The notes: generated by a model from the letters alone, not told the origin. Shown: positions 22,364 to 64,000, numbered from the stretch's first letter. The stretch is DNA of 64,000 nucleotides from an uncultured cyanobacterium (GCA_963706595.1 OY970166.1:2208001-2272000); one strand, 5' to 3'. Numbers and translations: made by a program.

Positions 22364-23227
22364 TTAAGTACTCGGCTGTGACTGTGATTCATTCGCTGGC
22401 GCAGATTCTTTCTTCTCTGTCTGCGTCTCAGTTGACTGCTGTACTTGCTGGAAATGAATGTTATTCACCTGTTGAATAAAGTGTTCTAAAGCTTGGCTAG
22501 CTTTTTGTTGCTGTTGCACCTCGTCAGGAGTATCATAGAAACGATAAGGTTGTGTCACGCCCAAAATAAACTTTTCTTCTTCCGCTTCCAATAATTCTAC
22601 TACCGTGTTAGCCGCTACCCAATTCTTTTGAAAAGGGAACGACGTAACTATACTGGCGAGTATAGACGCAATAGCGGGACAAATAACCGGTAGCCACTTC
22701 AACCAAGTTTGTCCTGCTTCTATTTTATCTACCAGCACTAAAATAGGTGTGATTCCCGAAAAAACCACAGTGGTAATTTGCAGAACATAGTAAATCGTTC
22801 TCGACAAATCCCGAACTCGTCTATAGTCTTCAATCAAATCTTGACAGTATTGTAAAGCTTTAGCTTTAATTGGCGTAAAATTTTTGAGCTGCCAAGAGCT
22901 ATTATTCAATATATAAGTATAGATTTCGGCTTTTTTGTTAGCTTGGTACTGATTAGCAGCTTTTTGTGAGTCTTGAAATAATTGTCTATTGACGATGAAT
23001 AGTGAAAAGACAAAACAGAGTGCTATCACACCATAAAGAGCAAACTTTTGATTTTCGGAAAAACTAATCACAAGAATACTCAATAATAGTAAAGATGCGA
23101 TCAGCAATTTATCAATTATTTTCAGAGTTAAAAATCTTTTCTCCTCTGGCGAAACTGATGCATTACCTGTACTTTCCCCATTGGGATTTTGTATTAAATT
23201 CTCAATTATCAAATCTGGTGTAGTCAT
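22364..23227 (-). CDS. DUF4231 (SLATT-like) membrane protein
   Basis: Two N-terminal TMs plus a two-TM SLATT-like unit followed by FQKNW..ELLEAEEEKF. Confidence 0.7.
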   Translation of the reverse strand: MTTPDLIIENLIQNPNGESTGNASVSPEEKRFLTLKIIDKLLIASLLLLSILVISFSENQKFALYGVIALCFVFSLFIVNRQLFQDSQKAANQYQANKKAEIYTYILNNSSWQLKNFTPIKAKALQYCQDLIEDYRRVRDLSRTIYYVLQITTVVFSGITPILVLVDKIEAGQTWLKWLPVICPAIASILASIVTSFPFQKNWVAANTVVELLEAEEEKFILGVTQPYRFYDTPDEVQQQQKASQALEHFIQQVNNIHFQQVQQSTETQTEKKESAPANESQSQPST

Positions 23228-57417: not shown

Positions 57418-58947
57418 ATGCTTGCTAGAGTTTGGAGTGCATCTATTGTGGGCATCGATGCCGTGAAAGTCGGTGTTGAAGTCGATATTTCAGGGGGTTT
57501 ACCGGGAATTGTGGTGTTGGGTCTTCCAGATTCGGCGGTGCAAGAATCTAAGGAGAGGGTAAAAGCGACGCTGAAAAATGCTGGTTTTGCTTTCCCGATG
57601 CGGAAAATTGTGATTAACCTGACTCCGGCTGATTTACGCAAGGAAGGGCCATGTTTCGATTTACCCATTAGTGTGGGGATTTTGGCGGCTTCTGAGCAAG
57701 TTAGTGCTGATTTGTTGGGAGATTATCTTTTTTTGGGTGAAGTCTCCTTAGATGGTAGTTTACGTCCTGTGGCTGGGGTTTTACCCATTGCGGCTACAGC
57801 CCAAAAAATGGGAATTGCAGGTTTAGTTGTTCCAGTAGATAATGCTCAAGAAGCTTCGGTAGTTGCAGGATTGGCGGTTTACGGTTGCAAAAATATCGCT
57901 GAGGTGGTGGATTTGTTGAATAATCCAGGGCGTTACAAACCTGTACAGCCAGATAATTCACAACCGTTACCCAAAACGGCTTATCCTGGCGCAGACTTAA
58001 AAGATGTCAAAGGTCAGGCTCATGCTCGTCGGGCTTTGGAAATTGCAGCTGCTGGAGGTCATAATCTTATATTCGTCGGACCTCCTGGGAGTGGGAAAAC
58101 GATGTTAGCTCGACGTTTACCGGGTATTTTACCACCTTTGGAGTTTGCGGAATCTTTAGAAGTGACTCGGATTCACTCGGTGGCTGGGTTGTTGAAAAAT
58201 CGCGGTTCCTTAGTACGCGATCGCCCTTTTCGCAGTCCTCACCATTCAGCATCGGGACCTTCTCTGGTTGGTGGTGGTAGTTTTCCCCGTCCTGGGGAGA
58301 TATCTTTATCACATTTTGGGATCTTATTTCTGGATGAGTTGACAGAGTTTAAGCGCGATGTTTTAGAATTTCTCCGCCAACCTTTAGAAGATGGTTATGT
58401 GACAATTTCCCGCACTAGACAATCGGTGATGTTTCCGGCGCAATTTACTTTAGTCGCCAGTACCAATCCCTGTCCTTGCGGTTATTATGGCGATACTATT
58501 CAACAGTGTACCTGTTCACCCAGACAACGGGAAAATTATTGGGCAAAGCTTTCGGGACCTTTGATGGATCGGATTGATTTACAAGTTGCAGTGAATCGTT
58601 TAAAGCCAGAGGAAATTACCCAACAACCTACGGGAGAAGCTTCAACTTCAGTTTTAGAGAGAGTTACAAAAGCACGCGATCGCGCCGTTAAACGTTTTCA
58701 AGGAGAACCAAATCTGCGTTGCAATGCTCAAATGCAAAGCCATCATCTTCAGAAATGGTGCAAGTTAGATGATACTAGCCGCAGTTTATTGGAAGCAGCA
58801 ATTAGAAAATTAGGCTTATCTGCAAGGGCGAGCGATCGCATTCTCAAAGTCGGGCGGACTATTGCAGATTTAGCTGGGGAAGAGGAATTAAAAGCCAATC
58901 ATATAGCTGAAGCGATTCAATACCGCACAATCGATAGGATGCAATAA
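57418..58947 (+). CDS. comM: YifB/ComM Mg-chelatase-like AAA+ ATPase
   Basis: INLTPADLRKEG, GPPGSGKT, RSPHHSAS, LFLDE, NPCPCG, LSARA. Confidence 0.92.
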   Translation: MLARVWSASIVGIDAVKVGVEVDISGGLPGIVVLGLPDSAVQESKERVKATLKNAGFAFPMRKIVINLTPADLRKEGPCFDLPISVGILAASEQVSADLLGDYLFLGEVSLDGSLRPVAGVLPIAATAQKMGIAGLVVPVDNAQEASVVAGLAVYGCKNIAEVVDLLNNPGRYKPVQPDNSQPLPKTAYPGADLKDVKGQAHARRALEIAAAGGHNLIFVGPPGSGKTMLARRLPGILPPLEFAESLEVTRIHSVAGLLKNRGSLVRDRPFRSPHHSASGPSLVGGGSFPRPGEISLSHFGILFLDELTEFKRDVLEFLRQPLEDGYVTISRTRQSVMFPAQFTLVASTNPCPCGYYGDTIQQCTCSPRQRENYWAKLSGPLMDRIDLQVAVNRLKPEEITQQPTGEASTSVLERVTKARDRAVKRFQGEPNLRCNAQMQSHHLQKWCKLDDTSRSLLEAAIRKLGLSARASDRILKVGRTIADLAGEEELKANHIAEAIQYRTIDRMQ

Positions 58948-59127: not shown

Positions 59128-61215
59128 TTATCCCCCGCCAGAAGGATCGCTGCCACATACAGGGCAGATATACATCCATTTTCCTTTATGTTCTGGATGA
59201 TCTGAGTGTCTATGGAAACAGTTAGGAAACTTAAGGATACGGTGATTTTTACCGTAGCAATGTTGGACAACCCAGAATTGACCACATTTAGGACATGAAC
59301 AATATAGACCTGTCCCTGTTCCAGACCTGGAACTACCTGATATTACGCGACTAGTCAATTCTTGTTGACTTATTTTATTTGGTATCCAACTAGTCTGAGT
59401 GTCTTGTTCCAAATTAAGTTTATGTCCGCAAAATAGACAGTCGGTAGAAAAGCTACCGTGGTACTGAAACATTAATCTAATTAATCTATTAAGCTGCCTA
59501 TTCACCCCTACACCTGGCTTAAGTGCAATTGCTCCATATTTGTGGCTAATAAATCTATCTTCACTTCTTCCAAGGGTGTCATCAAACTTTTCCTTTAGTA
59601 CCCTGTTGATAGGGACTTCACCCCAAAAATCAATTTGTTGATCTGTATGCAAAATAAAACTAGCTTTTCCTCTTAAAGAATACAAGTATTTATCTCTAGC
59701 AACATCTATAACATCAGAAATAAACTGTTTACTCCCTTGGTGTTTATAGTTACGATATTTAGCATCAAAATAGTAAGTATTTGTGTCACTATTGGTTGAT
59801 ATATCTATCCTAATATCAGGAATTTTTAATTGATTGGAATTAGTATATTGCTTTGGTTGATACCATAGTGAAACATTGAATTGACTACCATCATCAAAAG
59901 CACCTTGAAGACGAAATACATTATTTGTAGGTATTTTAATCTCTCCTTTCTCAATTCGCATACTCTCAAAAAGAGTAGTTTCATTTAAGGGAGGACGCAT
60001 ATTCAAATTTGTAACAAAAGCATTATAGAGCCTGACAAAGCACCAAATTTCGTATAGTTCCCATGTAGAACGAACTTGACCTTGATAGATAGCTTTAAAG
60101 AGCTTAATAACTGGTTGAATCTTAGGAAAAATACTGCTTTCGCAATTCATGTACTCTTCAAAAATAGGAGCATAAGCGGGAGAGCTAATTAATCGCTGAG
60201 ATGGTAAAGGTAGTTGAGTGGGAGTTAGTACATTCTGTAAAAATGGAGTATGACGGACGTAAGTTGCCCATTCTGCACACTCTTGAAGTTGAGCTACTAT
60301 TTTCGATATATTTTTCCTTTCCTCTTCCCTTTGCTGATTAAATTTTTTAACTCGCTCTTTAGCTCTAGCCAAAAAGCTTAACATTGCTGGTTCATTGGCA
60401 TAATTAAGAGGTGAAAAGAAGCTATCATCAATTCCTAAGTCTTCAAGTGAATGAAAAATCCCATTAACTAAATCCTTTAAATAAACATCTAGTACATAAC
60501 ATAAAAATTCATTTTCAGAGCATTGAGTAGATTCAACTTTGGTTAAAGCTAGAATTCTTTGTTTAGAAGCATCTATCTTGGCTTTGATTATAACTTGAGG
60601 CGAATTGATTAATTTTCGTGTATCAACTAAACCTAACTCTCTAGAAAAACTTTTCAGGGGACGTTTTTCTATTATTGCCCAGTTACTTTGAACAACTGAT
60701 GCTAGTTTTAATATGGAAGTTGCTGTTAATAATAAACCTCTGCTGTCAGAGTATCCCATTCCAATCATTGCAGTTTCTACGTCTTCCCCTACAGAAACTT
60801 GTAATTGATTGGTAACACAACTAGATGTAGAAAGTCCTAGTAATCCTATTTCAGTAATTAATTGTTCTAGTTCCTGCTCTGTTAAGCCAGCTGGTTTCAC
60901 TAACAAAAAAGCTTCAGGACTACTATCTATGGGTTCACCGGAAGCATTCAAGAGTATAGCGGTTATTTGTCCTGTTCTTGACGCTACTCCTTTACTGATT
61001 TCTCGCTCGTGTTTCGTTCTTTGAGGGAGTTCCCACCTATTGCTGCCTATTTTTAGGAGTGGAATTATAGAATCACCCTTTAAACCAACACTTCCATTCC
61101 ATAAACCCTCTATCTCAACATACCAACGTCCACTGTACTGGCGAGTGTATTGTGCATCATCTTCCCAAGGTAGCTCACCTCTGGAGTCAGCAAAATTAAT
61201 TTTTGGATAAGCCAT
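59128..61215 (-). CDS. McrC-like DUF2357/PD-(D/E)XK nuclease with C-terminal Cys/His Zn-finger region
   Basis: ENEFL, LYEIWCF (~60040-60057), PDI (59812-59820) and FDAKYR (59752-59769); tail CLFC, CPKC, CPVC; 11 bp downstream of the RT-McrB gene. Confidence 0.8.
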   Translation of the reverse strand: MAYPKINFADSRGELPWEDDAQYTRQYSGRWYVEIEGLWNGSVGLKGDSIIPLLKIGSNRWELPQRTKHEREISKGVASRTGQITAILLNASGEPIDSSPEAFLLVKPAGLTEQELEQLITEIGLLGLSTSSCVTNQLQVSVGEDVETAMIGMGYSDSRGLLLTATSILKLASVVQSNWAIIEKRPLKSFSRELGLVDTRKLINSPQVIIKAKIDASKQRILALTKVESTQCSENEFLCYVLDVYLKDLVNGIFHSLEDLGIDDSFFSPLNYANEPAMLSFLARAKERVKKFNQQREEERKNISKIVAQLQECAEWATYVRHTPFLQNVLTPTQLPLPSQRLISSPAYAPIFEEYMNCESSIFPKIQPVIKLFKAIYQGQVRSTWELYEIWCFVRLYNAFVTNLNMRPPLNETTLFESMRIEKGEIKIPTNNVFRLQGAFDDGSQFNVSLWYQPKQYTNSNQLKIPDIRIDISTNSDTNTYYFDAKYRNYKHQGSKQFISDVIDVARDKYLYSLRGKASFILHTDQQIDFWGEVPINRVLKEKFDDTLGRSEDRFISHKYGAIALKPGVGVNRQLNRLIRLMFQYHGSFSTDCLFCGHKLNLEQDTQTSWIPNKISQQELTSRVISGSSRSGTGTGLYCSCPKCGQFWVVQHCYGKNHRILKFPNCFHRHSDHPEHKGKWMYICPVCGSDPSGGG

Positions 61216-61226
61216 AAACGTTCACT

Positions 61227-63473
61227 TTATCCCCAGTAGCTAACATTGCGCCGTCTAGTATCTTGGATTTGATTTCGTAAATTTTCAATTACATCTGGAG
61301 TACCGAACTGAGAATAATTATTTTCAATTTCCTCTAGCCATTCAAGGCAAATATTTTCTCGCTCTTCATCCTTGAAAAAAGAAATTCTAGGCAGAAGTTT
61401 CGTAAAGAGAAAGTATCCTATACATTCTTTGGCTGTTAATCCAATAATTTTAGAAGCAGTATAGAAAACTTTATAATCTCTTTTTACTCGATATCCTAAA
61501 GGTATTCCGCACTGAGATAAGTAACGAGAGTTCCAATTTGAGATAGTATCCCAACCAGAAATTCTGTTGGGAGTTCCGAGAAGTTGATTATCTAATTCTT
61601 TAAATAAAGATGTTATAAATGTTCCTGCAATTGGATTGCTAGAAAGGGGCGAATTTGTATTTTCAGTAAAATCAGGCAAAGGATAGGTAATGATGAAGGA
61701 TTTATCTATTACTTTTGGACTGATGTTATAAGTGGTTTCGTCTGAATTTAGAGTTCCAATCAAAACTAAGTTTTTGGGAATTAAAAATTCCGCAGGATAA
61801 TTACTTAAAATATGTTGAAGTTTAGCCAGTCTGTTAATTTGTTCAGATGTTTTTGATTTTTGGGATTGTAACAGCTTAATTTCTTGCCTAATTTGTATTT
61901 CTATACTAGGTGAGTAGAGAATTAGCTTTTGCGTTGCTTGACCTTTGGAATATTCTAAAGATGAGAGTAAGTCAGCAGCATAGTTTTCAATTCGAGCTAA
62001 ATTGAGTTCATCCAAACAGACTAAAAAAACTTGTTCAAATTTTTCGTGAGCTTGTTGTAATGCAGTTAAAAAACTGGAGGGATGAAAGCTATCATTAATT
62101 GGATTGTAAAATCCTAACAAATCGCTTGAGTCAGTCCAAGCTGGTCGAACAGGAATAATTTTGCTATTACCATTTAAAATTTTAGCAGATTTTTCTACCA
62201 GGCTTGTTTTACCAATTCCAACCGAGCCATTTAATAAAATAATTTGTCCAGTATATAAAGAAGTTAATACAGATAATAAATAGCTAGTTTTAATATAGTT
62301 GGCTAATAATATACCCCTGGCGTTAACTTCAGCATTCCAGTCTTGATAATTGAGTGAAATTTCTTCCTGCCATCCTTTAATTTTTAATTTTTTATGGTTA
62401 GCTATTTCCTCAGATAATAGTTTTTTGTAATGAACCAAATATTTTATATATATTGGGTCATTTTTACCTCTAACCATACCTAAAAATTCAATCTTACCTC
62501 GAACAACATGATGAAAACGTTTTGTTTGTTCACTGCTTCTAATTTTTAAATATTTGTATTTTTTATCATATCTACTACTATACTCACCTGATGCCTTCTC
62601 AATTCCAAACTTTTGCCAAGCATGAAGCAACGCTTGGATTTGTCGGACAAATTTACGATTTACGTTAGGAAGATGGTTAACTGTTAAACCCGTTACTTCC
62701 TGACGATAGTTTTGAGTTTGCAACCTTACTTTATTCTCATTTACTTCAAAATTATTACTATTAAGTATTTCTCGTAATTCTTCTCCAACAAAAAATCTTC
62801 TTGCAGATCCATTATTAACTACACGTCCTAGTCCTTCTGGAAACTCCTCTAAATTATTAGAAAAAGTGATATCATCAGCATATCTTGTATATGTTGCTTT
62901 ATATTTTTTTGCTAGTTCTAGTAATTGCCTATCCATTTTTGCACATACCATATTTGAGACGATAGGTGAAGTGGGTGCGCCTTGAGGTAACTGATCCTGA
63001 TAGCAGCATATTTGTGCCAGTAGGTTAGCTACTTTATCATTCGCGTTATATGGTTGTGCCATAAACATGGCTCGAACTCTTTCAAAGTTAATTGATGCAA
63101 AAAAGTCTTGAATATCTAAATTTAGAACATATTTCTTTTTAGTATGAGCTTTGGCATTAGTTACAATACTTTTTTTTGCTGTAAAACCATGTACGCATGG
63201 CTTAGGTTGATAAACAGGTTGTAGTATTTCTTTGCTGAGTTTTTTTTGTATATCTAGTAAAGGAAAATATCCTTCTCCTTCATATATTTCATAACGTTCC
63301 GAGCTACTTATTGGTGTTCTTATTGTTCTTACACCACCAGATTTCTTAGGAATTTTAAATTCCCTGTATATTTCATCTACTTGTTCAAGTAGCTCAATTA
63401 AACTATGATAATCAATGCCTAGTTTTTCTGCTACAAGTTCTGGAGATAAGCGATATAAGTCGTTTAAATTCAT
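61227..63473 (-). CDS. Retron-type reverse transcriptase fused to an McrB-like AAA+ NTPase
   Basis: RT: IPKKSGG, HGF, NAKAH, LDIQDFF, LPQGAPTSP, YADD, VTG. AAA+: GSVGIGKT, VRPAWTDSSDLLGFYN, LDELN, GTLNSDE. Confidence 0.9.
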   Translation of the reverse strand: MNLNDLYRLSPELVAEKLGIDYHSLIELLEQVDEIYREFKIPKKSGGVRTIRTPISSSERYEIYEGEGYFPLLDIQKKLSKEILQPVYQPKPCVHGFTAKKSIVTNAKAHTKKKYVLNLDIQDFFASINFERVRAMFMAQPYNANDKVANLLAQICCYQDQLPQGAPTSPIVSNMVCAKMDRQLLELAKKYKATYTRYADDITFSNNLEEFPEGLGRVVNNGSARRFFVGEELREILNSNNFEVNENKVRLQTQNYRQEVTGLTVNHLPNVNRKFVRQIQALLHAWQKFGIEKASGEYSSRYDKKYKYLKIRSSEQTKRFHHVVRGKIEFLGMVRGKNDPIYIKYLVHYKKLLSEEIANHKKLKIKGWQEEISLNYQDWNAEVNARGILLANYIKTSYLLSVLTSLYTGQIILLNGSVGIGKTSLVEKSAKILNGNSKIIPVRPAWTDSSDLLGFYNPINDSFHPSSFLTALQQAHEKFEQVFLVCLDELNLARIENYAADLLSSLEYSKGQATQKLILYSPSIEIQIRQEIKLLQSQKSKTSEQINRLAKLQHILSNYPAEFLIPKNLVLIGTLNSDETTYNISPKVIDKSFIITYPLPDFTENTNSPLSSNPIAGTFITSLFKELDNQLLGTPNRISGWDTISNWNSRYLSQCGIPLGYRVKRDYKVFYTASKIIGLTAKECIGYFLFTKLLPRISFFKDEERENICLEWLEEIENNYSQFGTPDVIENLRNQIQDTRRRNVSYWG

Positions 63474-63660
63474 TTAATGTATTCAACAAGAAAGGCATAA
63501 GGTTTCTCTAATCGAACATAAAAGCCACCCAAAAGGGCAAGGGTTTAATTCCCCTACCAAAATCAGAGATTTGGTAGCTTCCAACTCGTGGGTATTGAAG
63601 CCTTTAACATCTTATACCCTTCTGCCTTCTTCACCAGAGTTTTCATCCTTCTAAATTGTG

Positions 63661-63770
63661 GAGGTATATACAGGTCTATTCCTAAGTGTCTTTTTTTCTT
63701 TTTTATGAAACCTTGCGGTAACTCGTTGCAGGATCAACAACGAAAATCAATAGCTACCTATATATACCTC
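63661..63770 (-). ncRNA. Candidate retron msr-msd ncRNA
   Basis: Arms GAGGTATATATAGGT and ACCTGTATATACCTC (15 bp, one G-U), AG after the 5' arm, two internal hairpins, directly downstream of a promoter and upstream of the RT. Confidence 0.7.
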
Positions 63771-63775
63771 TCTAT

Positions 63776-63805
63776 ACAGTATTTCTCTTTTGCATATTTT
63801 GTCAA
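63776..63805 (-). promoter_or_regulatory. Sigma70-type promoter of the retron operon
   Basis: TTGACA (63805-63800), 18 bp, TACTGT (63781-63776); predicted start near 63770. Confidence 0.65.
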
Positions 63806-64000
63806 GACTGTTACACAAATTGAACTAGAATGGAAAATATGATAGGTGGAATTAATGAGCTTATGCAAGCCTAAATTGACAATATTGAGAAGTTATAGCG
63901 ATTTCCAAAGTCGTCAGTATTGAGACAAAATTAACCACAGAGCAGATAAATCTATACCTAAGCTAAACTGAGAAATTCTGTCTCACGAATAGGGCAAAAA

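Follow-up and report, generated by a model that had tools for sequence, protein, structure and literature searches.

A compact retron-type RNA, very probably of the RT clade 8 family, upstream of an RT-McrB-like fusion gene in an uncultured cyanobacterium

Among the described retrons, those closest to the locus analysed here are Retron-Eco2 (Ec67, type I-C1), whose reverse transcriptase (RT) and TOPRIM effector form a single polypeptide, and the retrons of types XI (RT with a trypsin-like protease, RT clade 8) and XII (RT-TIR). In Ec67 the branch is at G15, synthesis ends at G52, and the msDNA is 67 nt long (PMC12916289). The RNAs of clade-8 retrons were long missing for types XI and XII: in Mestre et al. 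2020 no ncRNA is given as determined for either type (PMC7736814), and reports of such RNAs, covering some lineages, are a late development. RT-DNA production served to validate ncRNAs of type XI (PMC10849725), and candidate RNAs were described for two lineages of type XI-like retrons that belong to Bacteroidota and Bacillota and have WYL or DnaB_C as partners (PMC13712802). The branching residue of retron RNAs is most frequently, but not always, guanine, and G is also the commonest base at which copying begins (PMC10849725).

The stretch of DNA analysed here, referred to as the window, comprises 64,000 nt from an uncultured cyanobacterium (GCA_963706595.1 OY970166.1:2208001-2272000), and the element of interest is the 110 nt from 63770 to 63661 on its minus strand. 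Its two ends form a 15-nt inverted repeat (63770-63756 and 63675-63661) that is 93% complementary, and the sole non-Watson-Crick position, U63760 opposite G63671, is a G-U pair on the minus strand only. The minimum free energy fold of the minus strand had -33.6 kcal/mol, compared with -17.0 +/- 2.8 for shuffled sequences (z -5.96, none of 200 being as stable), and contained the pairing of the a1 and a2 arms (helix P1), helix P2, both hairpins (P3 and P4) and an unpaired AG. The fold of the plus strand was weaker (-25.7, z -3.54). The first-pass annotation of this DNA had described a compact retron-like RNA in the same orientation, with a1/a2 arms whose one mismatch is G-U only on this strand, an inner helix and two hairpins; all of these sequence features are present at the minus-strand coordinates collected in Table 1, the G-U pair included, and folding reproduced the whole arrangement. 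From the sequence analyses described below, the element is very probably a real and conserved retron msr/msd-type ncRNA, and a compact variant within an RNA family of RT clade 8. A search of Rfam with 63000-64000 at a permissive threshold gave chance-level matches only, the best of which was a snoRNA model with 22 bits against a gathering score of 80. An 84-aa ORF on the plus strand across the element (63588-63842) was taken as spurious, since the region is accounted for by the RNA and the plus-strand fold is the weaker one.

Table 1. Coordinates of the RNA, its predicted parts and the neighbouring genes in the window
Feature	Coordinates	Strand	Basis or remark
Promoter-like site, TTGACA, 16-nt spacer, AATACT	63778..63805	-	10/12 matches; predicted start ~63771-63770
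Whole retron-type ncRNA (msr/msd), 110 nt	63661..63770	-	Fold and covariance model R1
a1 arm, 5' strand of P1	63756..63770	-	Inverted repeat; in the family 7/8 P1 pairs changed on both sides
a2 arm, 3' strand of P1	63661..63675	-	Inverted repeat, family covariation, orthologue alignment
Unpaired 2-nt bulge AG, including G63754	63754..63755	-	AA in 4/5 orthologous loci; bulge length variable in the family
P2 5' strand, CUAUU	63749..63753	-	Pairs with 63680-63676; 3/5 P2 pairs double-changed, e.g. C-G to G-C
P2 3' strand, AAUAG	63676..63680	-	Family covariation; last letter U in L078, leaving 4 pairs
Candidate branching guanosine G63748	63748..63748	-	Between P2 and AUUU linker; G in 5/5 loci and 28/30 rows
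P3, conserved msr hairpin, UCGUUG, loop UUGAUCCUG, CAACGA	63723..63743	-	98% of cells paired; 3/7 pairs double-changed, e.g. C-G to U-A
P4, small hairpin ACC-GNRA-GGU (ACC-GCAA-GGU in the window)	63710..63719	-	Fold; loop GCAA or GUAA in orthologous loci
Predicted msd template, ~32 nt, A-rich, without stem-loop	63681..63712	-	Limits from Ec67 numbering via L077 (PMC12916289)
Spacer from a2 to RT start codon, including a ~150-nt block with hairpins	63474..63660	-	187 nt
748-aa fusion of retron-clade RT (~residues 12-361) and McrB-like AAA_5 (~397-521)	61227..63473	-	Pfam RVT_1 4e-19, AAA_5 1.4e-7
695-aa PD-(D/E)XK nuclease-like partner, possible McrC analogue, with C-terminal CxxC pairs	59128..61215	-	Pfam PDDEXK_7 9e-9; PADLOC PDC-M26B 2e-10

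Downstream of the RNA, on the same strand, lie the genes of the fusion protein and of its nuclease-like partner. Only the RT part of the fusion was covered by the retron models, both in PADLOC (RT-Protease_XI 1.6e-124, RT-TIR_XII 4e-117 and RT-Toprim_I-C 1.3e-116) and in NCBIfam, where Retron_TIR_antiphage reached 352 bits against a cut-off of 600 and retron_Ec67_fus 294 bits against 450. The nearest solved structures were the RT of Ec67 (2e-51, residues 33-295) and that of Ec86 (7e-26) for the RT part, and McrB (1.9e-4) for the AAA part. All three motifs by which retron RTs are recognised, NAxxH of region X, VTG of region Y and YxDD (as defined in PMC13712802), are intact in the fusion as NAKAH106, VTG260 and YADD198, and the AAA_5 part keeps a Walker A motif at residue 416 and the motif GT.N..DE. 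The partner protein carries PD465 and DAK484, and its nearest Atlas clusters contain PDDEXK_7 in 51-73% and DUF2357 in 12-19% of their members; sequence searches found no solved relative of it, and no McrC family was matched among Pfam, NCBIfam and solved structures. Stand-alone AAA_5 proteins that are 47-51% identical to the C-terminal half of the fusion, each followed by a homologue of the nuclease, were found at three loci of other cyanobacteria (L003, L004 and L015), so the ATPase-nuclease pair is a module of its own, corresponding to the PADLOC candidate PDC-M26. The retron RT occupies the N-terminus of the fusion, in place of the different sequence with which the stand-alone relatives begin. 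Clusters holding both RT and AAA_5 numbered only four among the best 120 of 4396 protein matches.

Compared with the described types, the locus combines features of several. It resembles Retron-Eco2 in having the closest solved RT and in joining RT and effector in a single polypeptide, and the RNAs of the Ec67 family share with the window RNA the order of a1, G, AUUU, one msr hairpin and a GUUA..AAGG segment. It differs from Ec67 in its effector, which is a McrB-like AAA_5 part with a separate PD-(D/E)XK protein instead of TOPRIM, in the extra helix P2 between a1 and the G, and in the predicted template, about 32 nt without a hairpin as against a 67-nt msDNA. Pfam gave no Toprim match for the C-terminal TOPRIM domain of type I-C, and no TIR match for the C-terminal TIR domain of type XII. 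For type XI, which provided the best PADLOC match of the RT part, the models matched profile positions 12-326 of 510 only, and Pfam found AAA_5 and no peptidase domain. The RNA of a type XI locus (L056) has the same P3 core, the same P1/P2 layout and the same G-AUUU linker as the window RNA. The published type XI and type XI-like RNAs (PMC10849725, PMC13712802) were compared with it by their descriptions. The effector genes have the make-up of McrBC systems and of PDC-M26: an AAA_5 NTPase with Walker A, McrB as its nearest solved AAA+ relative, a match to PDC-M26A (1.3e-55) and an adjacent PD-(D/E)XK gene. Similarity to E. coli McrB itself is weak, the NCBIfam McrB equivalog giving E 0.004 and 15.8 bits against a cut-off of 637, and by the curated models neither protein belongs to its family (McrB or McrC) in the strict sense. 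No paper on a retron that uses McrB or McrC came up in the literature searches. The combination of an RT-McrB-like fusion with a nuclease does not appear in Table 1 of Mestre et al. 2020 (PMC7736814) or in PMC13712802, where a term search gave neither McrB nor cyanobacteria.

The upstream DNA of the window was compared with that of four further RT-AAA_5 loci, namely L002 (genome G168), L031 (a plasmid of Nostoc sp. HK-01), L079 (G407, where a 753-aa RT protein is accompanied by one of 696 aa) and L078, a cut metagenome contig that was found with a 32-nt pattern of the RNA and shows the RNA and the start of the RT. The whole fusion protein used as a query in the genome contigs found no related loci, and the relatives came from other genome searches, a plasmid collection and DNA patterns. 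At all four of these other fusion loci the same RNA stood behind the same promoter boxes. Arms, P2, linker, P3 and P4 were identical or nearly so across the five loci, with similarity starting at the -35 box. The U63760 of the window and a G at a1 position 8 of L079 each turn a Watson-Crick pair into G-U, and on the other strand they would give A-C mismatches. In sharp distinction to these parts, the stretch from GGUUUC to CUUCGG (CUUAGG in the window, adjoining the P2 3' strand) differed in sequence and length in every locus; both of its ends were conserved and its middle carried indels in A-runs. The predicted template would measure 21-32 nt among the orthologues. In a public-metagenome contig variant, 11 nt were missing from the same stretch. 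Since the five orthologous RNAs are closely related, conservation within the group says little, and the covariation had to come from the wider family.

The promoter-like site is a weak match on its own, because one such site was found in 700 bases where 2.5 were expected in shuffled sequence. Its TTGACA and a -10-like box were kept in all five orthologous loci, and similarity ended upstream of the -35 box. Downstream of a2, the window type has no U-run, unlike most of its relatives, and two terminator-like sites lie within the spacer (63558-63525). The block of ~150 nt in this spacer is shared by the window, L002 and L078 and is missing from L031 and L079, whose spacers are ~45 nt; it was considered as a repeat, and this was rejected on finding it single-copy in the genome. 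Pairing between the first codons of the RT and the spacer is conceivable through two arms, 63454-63467 and 63603-63616. Among public sequencing runs, none exceeded a share of 0.13 of the words sampled. Contigs from a relative that is 90-95% alike cover 63300-63770 in public DNA runs, and those from RNA libraries cover 63301-63604 only, which leaves out the ncRNA; as such contigs show neither starts nor levels, they speak neither for nor against its transcription.

The same core was present in RNAs that precede RTs of other cyanobacteria, 50-58% identical to the RT of the window, and the RNAs of this family lie 100-300 nt ahead of the related RTs. Searching the genome contigs with a degenerate 26-nt pattern of the core gave 39 loci, nearly all cyanobacterial, and at most of them an RT-length ORF of ~350-390 aa begins 79-323 nt downstream, the RT identity having been checked at one of the 39 and at the related loci from the genome search. 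The next ORF, of ~290-310 aa, had no Pfam or PADLOC match. One member of the family, in a Clostridiales MAG (L056), precedes an RT-protease that is canonical for type XI and matches the model over its full length (8e-183), and the element is homologous with this RNA family of clade-8 retron RTs. Each family RNA had an a1/a2 pair of its own, with 14 distinct 5'-arm strings. Covariation was assessed on 30 sequences selected from 49 distinct spans, leaving out near-duplicates, the truncated L039 and L040, L052 and L017. RNAalifold recovered P1, P2 and P3 from these sequences, and pair counting showed 95.6% of cells paired and 13 of the 20 pairs changed on both sides, values reached by none of 500 shuffles, while controls with slid positions had 31-61% of cells paired. 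The letters of the P3 loop were near-invariant over the 30 sequences. P4 as a family-wide helix was rejected, its pairs being mostly U-G beyond the window type.

The covariance model built from the family (R1) matched 63768-63663 with 70.3 bits (E 7e-13), and in the whole 5.57-Mb genome it gave a single match, which was this element (E 3.2e-11). R1 matched in 13 of 151 genomes sampled from the order; seven of the 13 also had an RT match, and in all seven the RNA lay just upstream of that RT. It also matched upstream of the RTs of L017, L020 and a Herpetosiphon plasmid (E 1e-5). Together, the covariation, the conservation among orthologues and the R1 results support the retron-RNA reading well. 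Two checks suggested in the first-pass annotation, covariation across homologous loci and the keeping of the arms upstream of homologous RTs, thus both came out in favour of a retron-like RNA that has a1/a2 arms and msr stem-loops and precedes an RT of the retron clade.

Within this family the window type is the shortest: it measures 100-110 nt, while the remaining 27 rows range from 127 to 196 nt. The difference lies between P3 and the P2 3' strand, where the other members are 17-86 nt longer. In the window RNA this interval is 42 nt, of which only the 3-bp P4 is paired in the fold, the remainder being unpaired. A long stable stem-loop, which is a common msd feature according to PMC7736814, is therefore lacking on the msd side, as is the AGCUUUAC-like motif that follows P4 in most of the other 27 rows, and because both are missing the window RNA could be a degenerate template. 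The features of the msr side, a structured RNA beside the RT with a1/a2 arms and msr hairpins and conserved together with the RT, were all found.

Several further observations were made among the relatives and in the window. The loci L032-L070 and L005-L014 (for example L058:3635-5627 and L041:3628-5605) represent a widespread cyanobacterial retron lineage with an R1-type ncRNA followed by a U-run after a2, an RT of ~355-380 aa and an ORF of ~290-310 aa; a protein with an RRM_1 domain is among those encoded downstream in L055 and L064. At L013:2649-3107 (G113) and L055:3397-3993 the ncRNA stands twice in tandem upstream of one RT, and the RNA at L017:2844-3014 has a long inner region with repeated segments. 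At L033:620-3223 an R1-type core has no RT after it but two ORFs, one of 150 aa and one of 687 aa for a UvrD-like helicase, which may be a rearranged locus or a different partner. A weak R1 match on the plus strand of the window (22901-23003, 16.8 bits, E 0.87) was taken as chance.

The identity of the branching guanosine was examined by comparing the two candidate positions across these alignments. The first-pass annotation had proposed the bulged G63754 as the 2'-OH primer, and this part of it fared less well than the structure. The column of G63754 is A in four of the five orthologous loci, and the bulge that holds it varies in length and sequence in the wider family. The column of G63748 is G in all five loci and in 28 of the 30 family rows, and the letter opposite to it, just before the P2 3' strand, is likewise G in 28 of 30; exceptions, with U at the position of G63748, are L018, L019 and the Herpetosiphon RNA. 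Three plasmid RNAs of the Ec67 family (from Bacillus cereus, Enterococcus faecium and E. coli) show a 13-nt a1, G, AUUU and a hairpin. The E. coli relative (L077; 630 bits to the Ec67 chain, not identical to it) was numbered after Ec67, so that G15 corresponds to the G after a1 and G52 to the AAGG after the hairpin, which gives, counted by hand, a template of 66 nt against the 67 published. In this relative G52 lies 37 nt beyond G15, and in the window the conserved GG at 63712/63711 lies 36-37 nt beyond G63748. The link to Ec67 was drawn from the motif as read by eye and from this relative, because R1 with filters off left the Ec67-family RNAs (L073, L074) and the RT-TIR locus L072 undetected (E above 3). 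At the latter locus, on an E. coli plasmid (L072:970-2599), the RT-TIR gene of type XII-like kind is present as two overlapping ORFs and an A precedes AUUU, and it is possibly a decayed retron. Provided that the RNA is reverse transcribed, these comparisons make G63748 the somewhat favoured branch, and G63754 is probably a wrong assignment.

The same RNA could still be used as a retron with P1 alone as the a1/a2 stem, the bulged G63754 as the branch, and copying from G63676 through the P2 3' strand. In its favour, G63754 is unpaired, follows directly after a 15-bp a1 and is preceded by GGUA, as is the G in the E. coli RNA of the Ec67 family; TTA often stands before the branch G of retrons (PMC10849725); and the differences listed for the metagenome contig variant close to the window include none at this position. 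These points have to be set against the four orthologous loci that have A there with an otherwise intact-looking RT and RNA, against the variability of the bulge, and against a spacing of 42-43 nt from G63754 to the GG, as compared with the 37 nt between G15 and G52 in the Ec67-type RNA (PMC12916289), into which G63748 fits. Branching at G63754 on this scheme is accordingly regarded as quite unlikely.

The alternatives that do away with reverse transcription must be weighed on the same data. The element might be a retron-derived RNA that still binds the RT but is no longer reverse transcribed, having lost its msd hairpin, and that now does no more than act as a scaffold, help assembly as a cofactor or regulate the RT-AAA_5 gene in cis. 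The small size of the window type, its want of an msd hairpin and of the AGCUUUAC-like motif, and the drift of the would-be template by indels in A-runs, as expected of unconstrained sequence, all agree with this. A variable msd beside a conserved msr is, on the other hand, the usual retron pattern; the RT keeps YADD, NAKAH and VTG; and the five loci show no change, or hardly any, in the arms, in P2, in the G opposite the G and at the two ends of the variable stretch, as would be needed of sites of priming and termination. A non-template function therefore seems unlikely, if slightly less so than branching from the bulge. That the structure has nothing to do with reverse transcription, being a palindrome due to chance, an intrinsic terminator or a 5'-leader structure of a general kind, is suggested by the AT-rich region, by the terminator-like stem and by the U-run after a2 in the wider family, but the window type itself has no such U-run, the helices covary, and the RNA is single-copy in the genome and associated exclusively and one-to-one with retron-clade RTs in genomes and on plasmids, so that this explanation is hardly credible.

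We consider it likely that the locus encodes a retron msr/msd RNA with its own promoter, from which the RT primes a short msDNA linked to an effector. According to this reading, the ncRNA would be transcribed from its own minus-strand promoter with a start at ~63770, its 5' and 3' ends would pair as a1 and a2, and P2 would extend P1 across the 2-nt bulge. The P3 hairpin, with P4, may be the handle that is recognised by the downstream RT. As primer the RT would use the 2'-OH of a guanosine, most likely G63748, that marks the inner end of the stem formed by P1 and P2, and it would copy the single-stranded A-rich stretch from G63681 to a stop near G63712/63711, yielding a T-rich msDNA of ~32 nt without a hairpin. 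That the RNA is indeed reverse transcribed into such a short msDNA is judged, from the comparisons made here, rather probable, with less assurance than the RNA itself. The complex of RT and msDNA would then hold or inform a toxic effector, the McrBC-like nuclease motor, as an anti-phage system; an anti-phage role as in other retrons is likely since the RT is fused to a McrB-like AAA+ part and a PD-(D/E)XK nuclease is encoded next to it. A more specific proposal, which we put forward only tentatively and regard as doubtful, is that the locus represents an undescribed retron type in which a McrB-like motor has a clade-8 RT in place of its N-terminal, DNA-reading part. The short (~20-32 nt), T-rich, fast-evolving and hairpin-less msDNA might then be a built-in DNA ligand of the McrB-like ring, and its loss or modification during phage infection would free the McrC-like nuclease. 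The specificity would be set by the hypervariable template, in which indels distinguish even loci with almost the same flanks.

On one side of the cassette lies a gene like comM/YifB and on the other a gene for a membrane protein, each on the opposite strand. In genomes of the same genus the flanking genes were present and no RT match was found; the orthologue of G168 lies elsewhere in the chromosome, and that of Nostoc sp. HK-01 lies on a plasmid. The comM region looks like a variable island hot spot. Comparison of window positions 57418-58947 with a contig of the same-genus genome G318 (C9:193666-231085) showed that G318 has two copies of the 3' end of the comM-like gene at a distance of ~32 kb, as would result if an element had integrated into comM. 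In the same genome, ~4 kb without an RT match lie between the partial comM copy and the membrane-protein gene that flanks the retron in the window.

The locus anchors a covarying RNA family for the cyanobacterial branch of RT clade 8, and the shared layout of stem, G, AUUU and hairpin links this clade-8 family to the well-studied Ec67. To our knowledge the 48-nt msDNA of Ec48 is the shortest among the classical msDNAs, and the template of the window RNA would be far shorter. As the smallest version in the family, the RNA offers a natural test of the minimum template for a retron RT. If the system is active, a McrBC-type motor would join the list of retron effectors.
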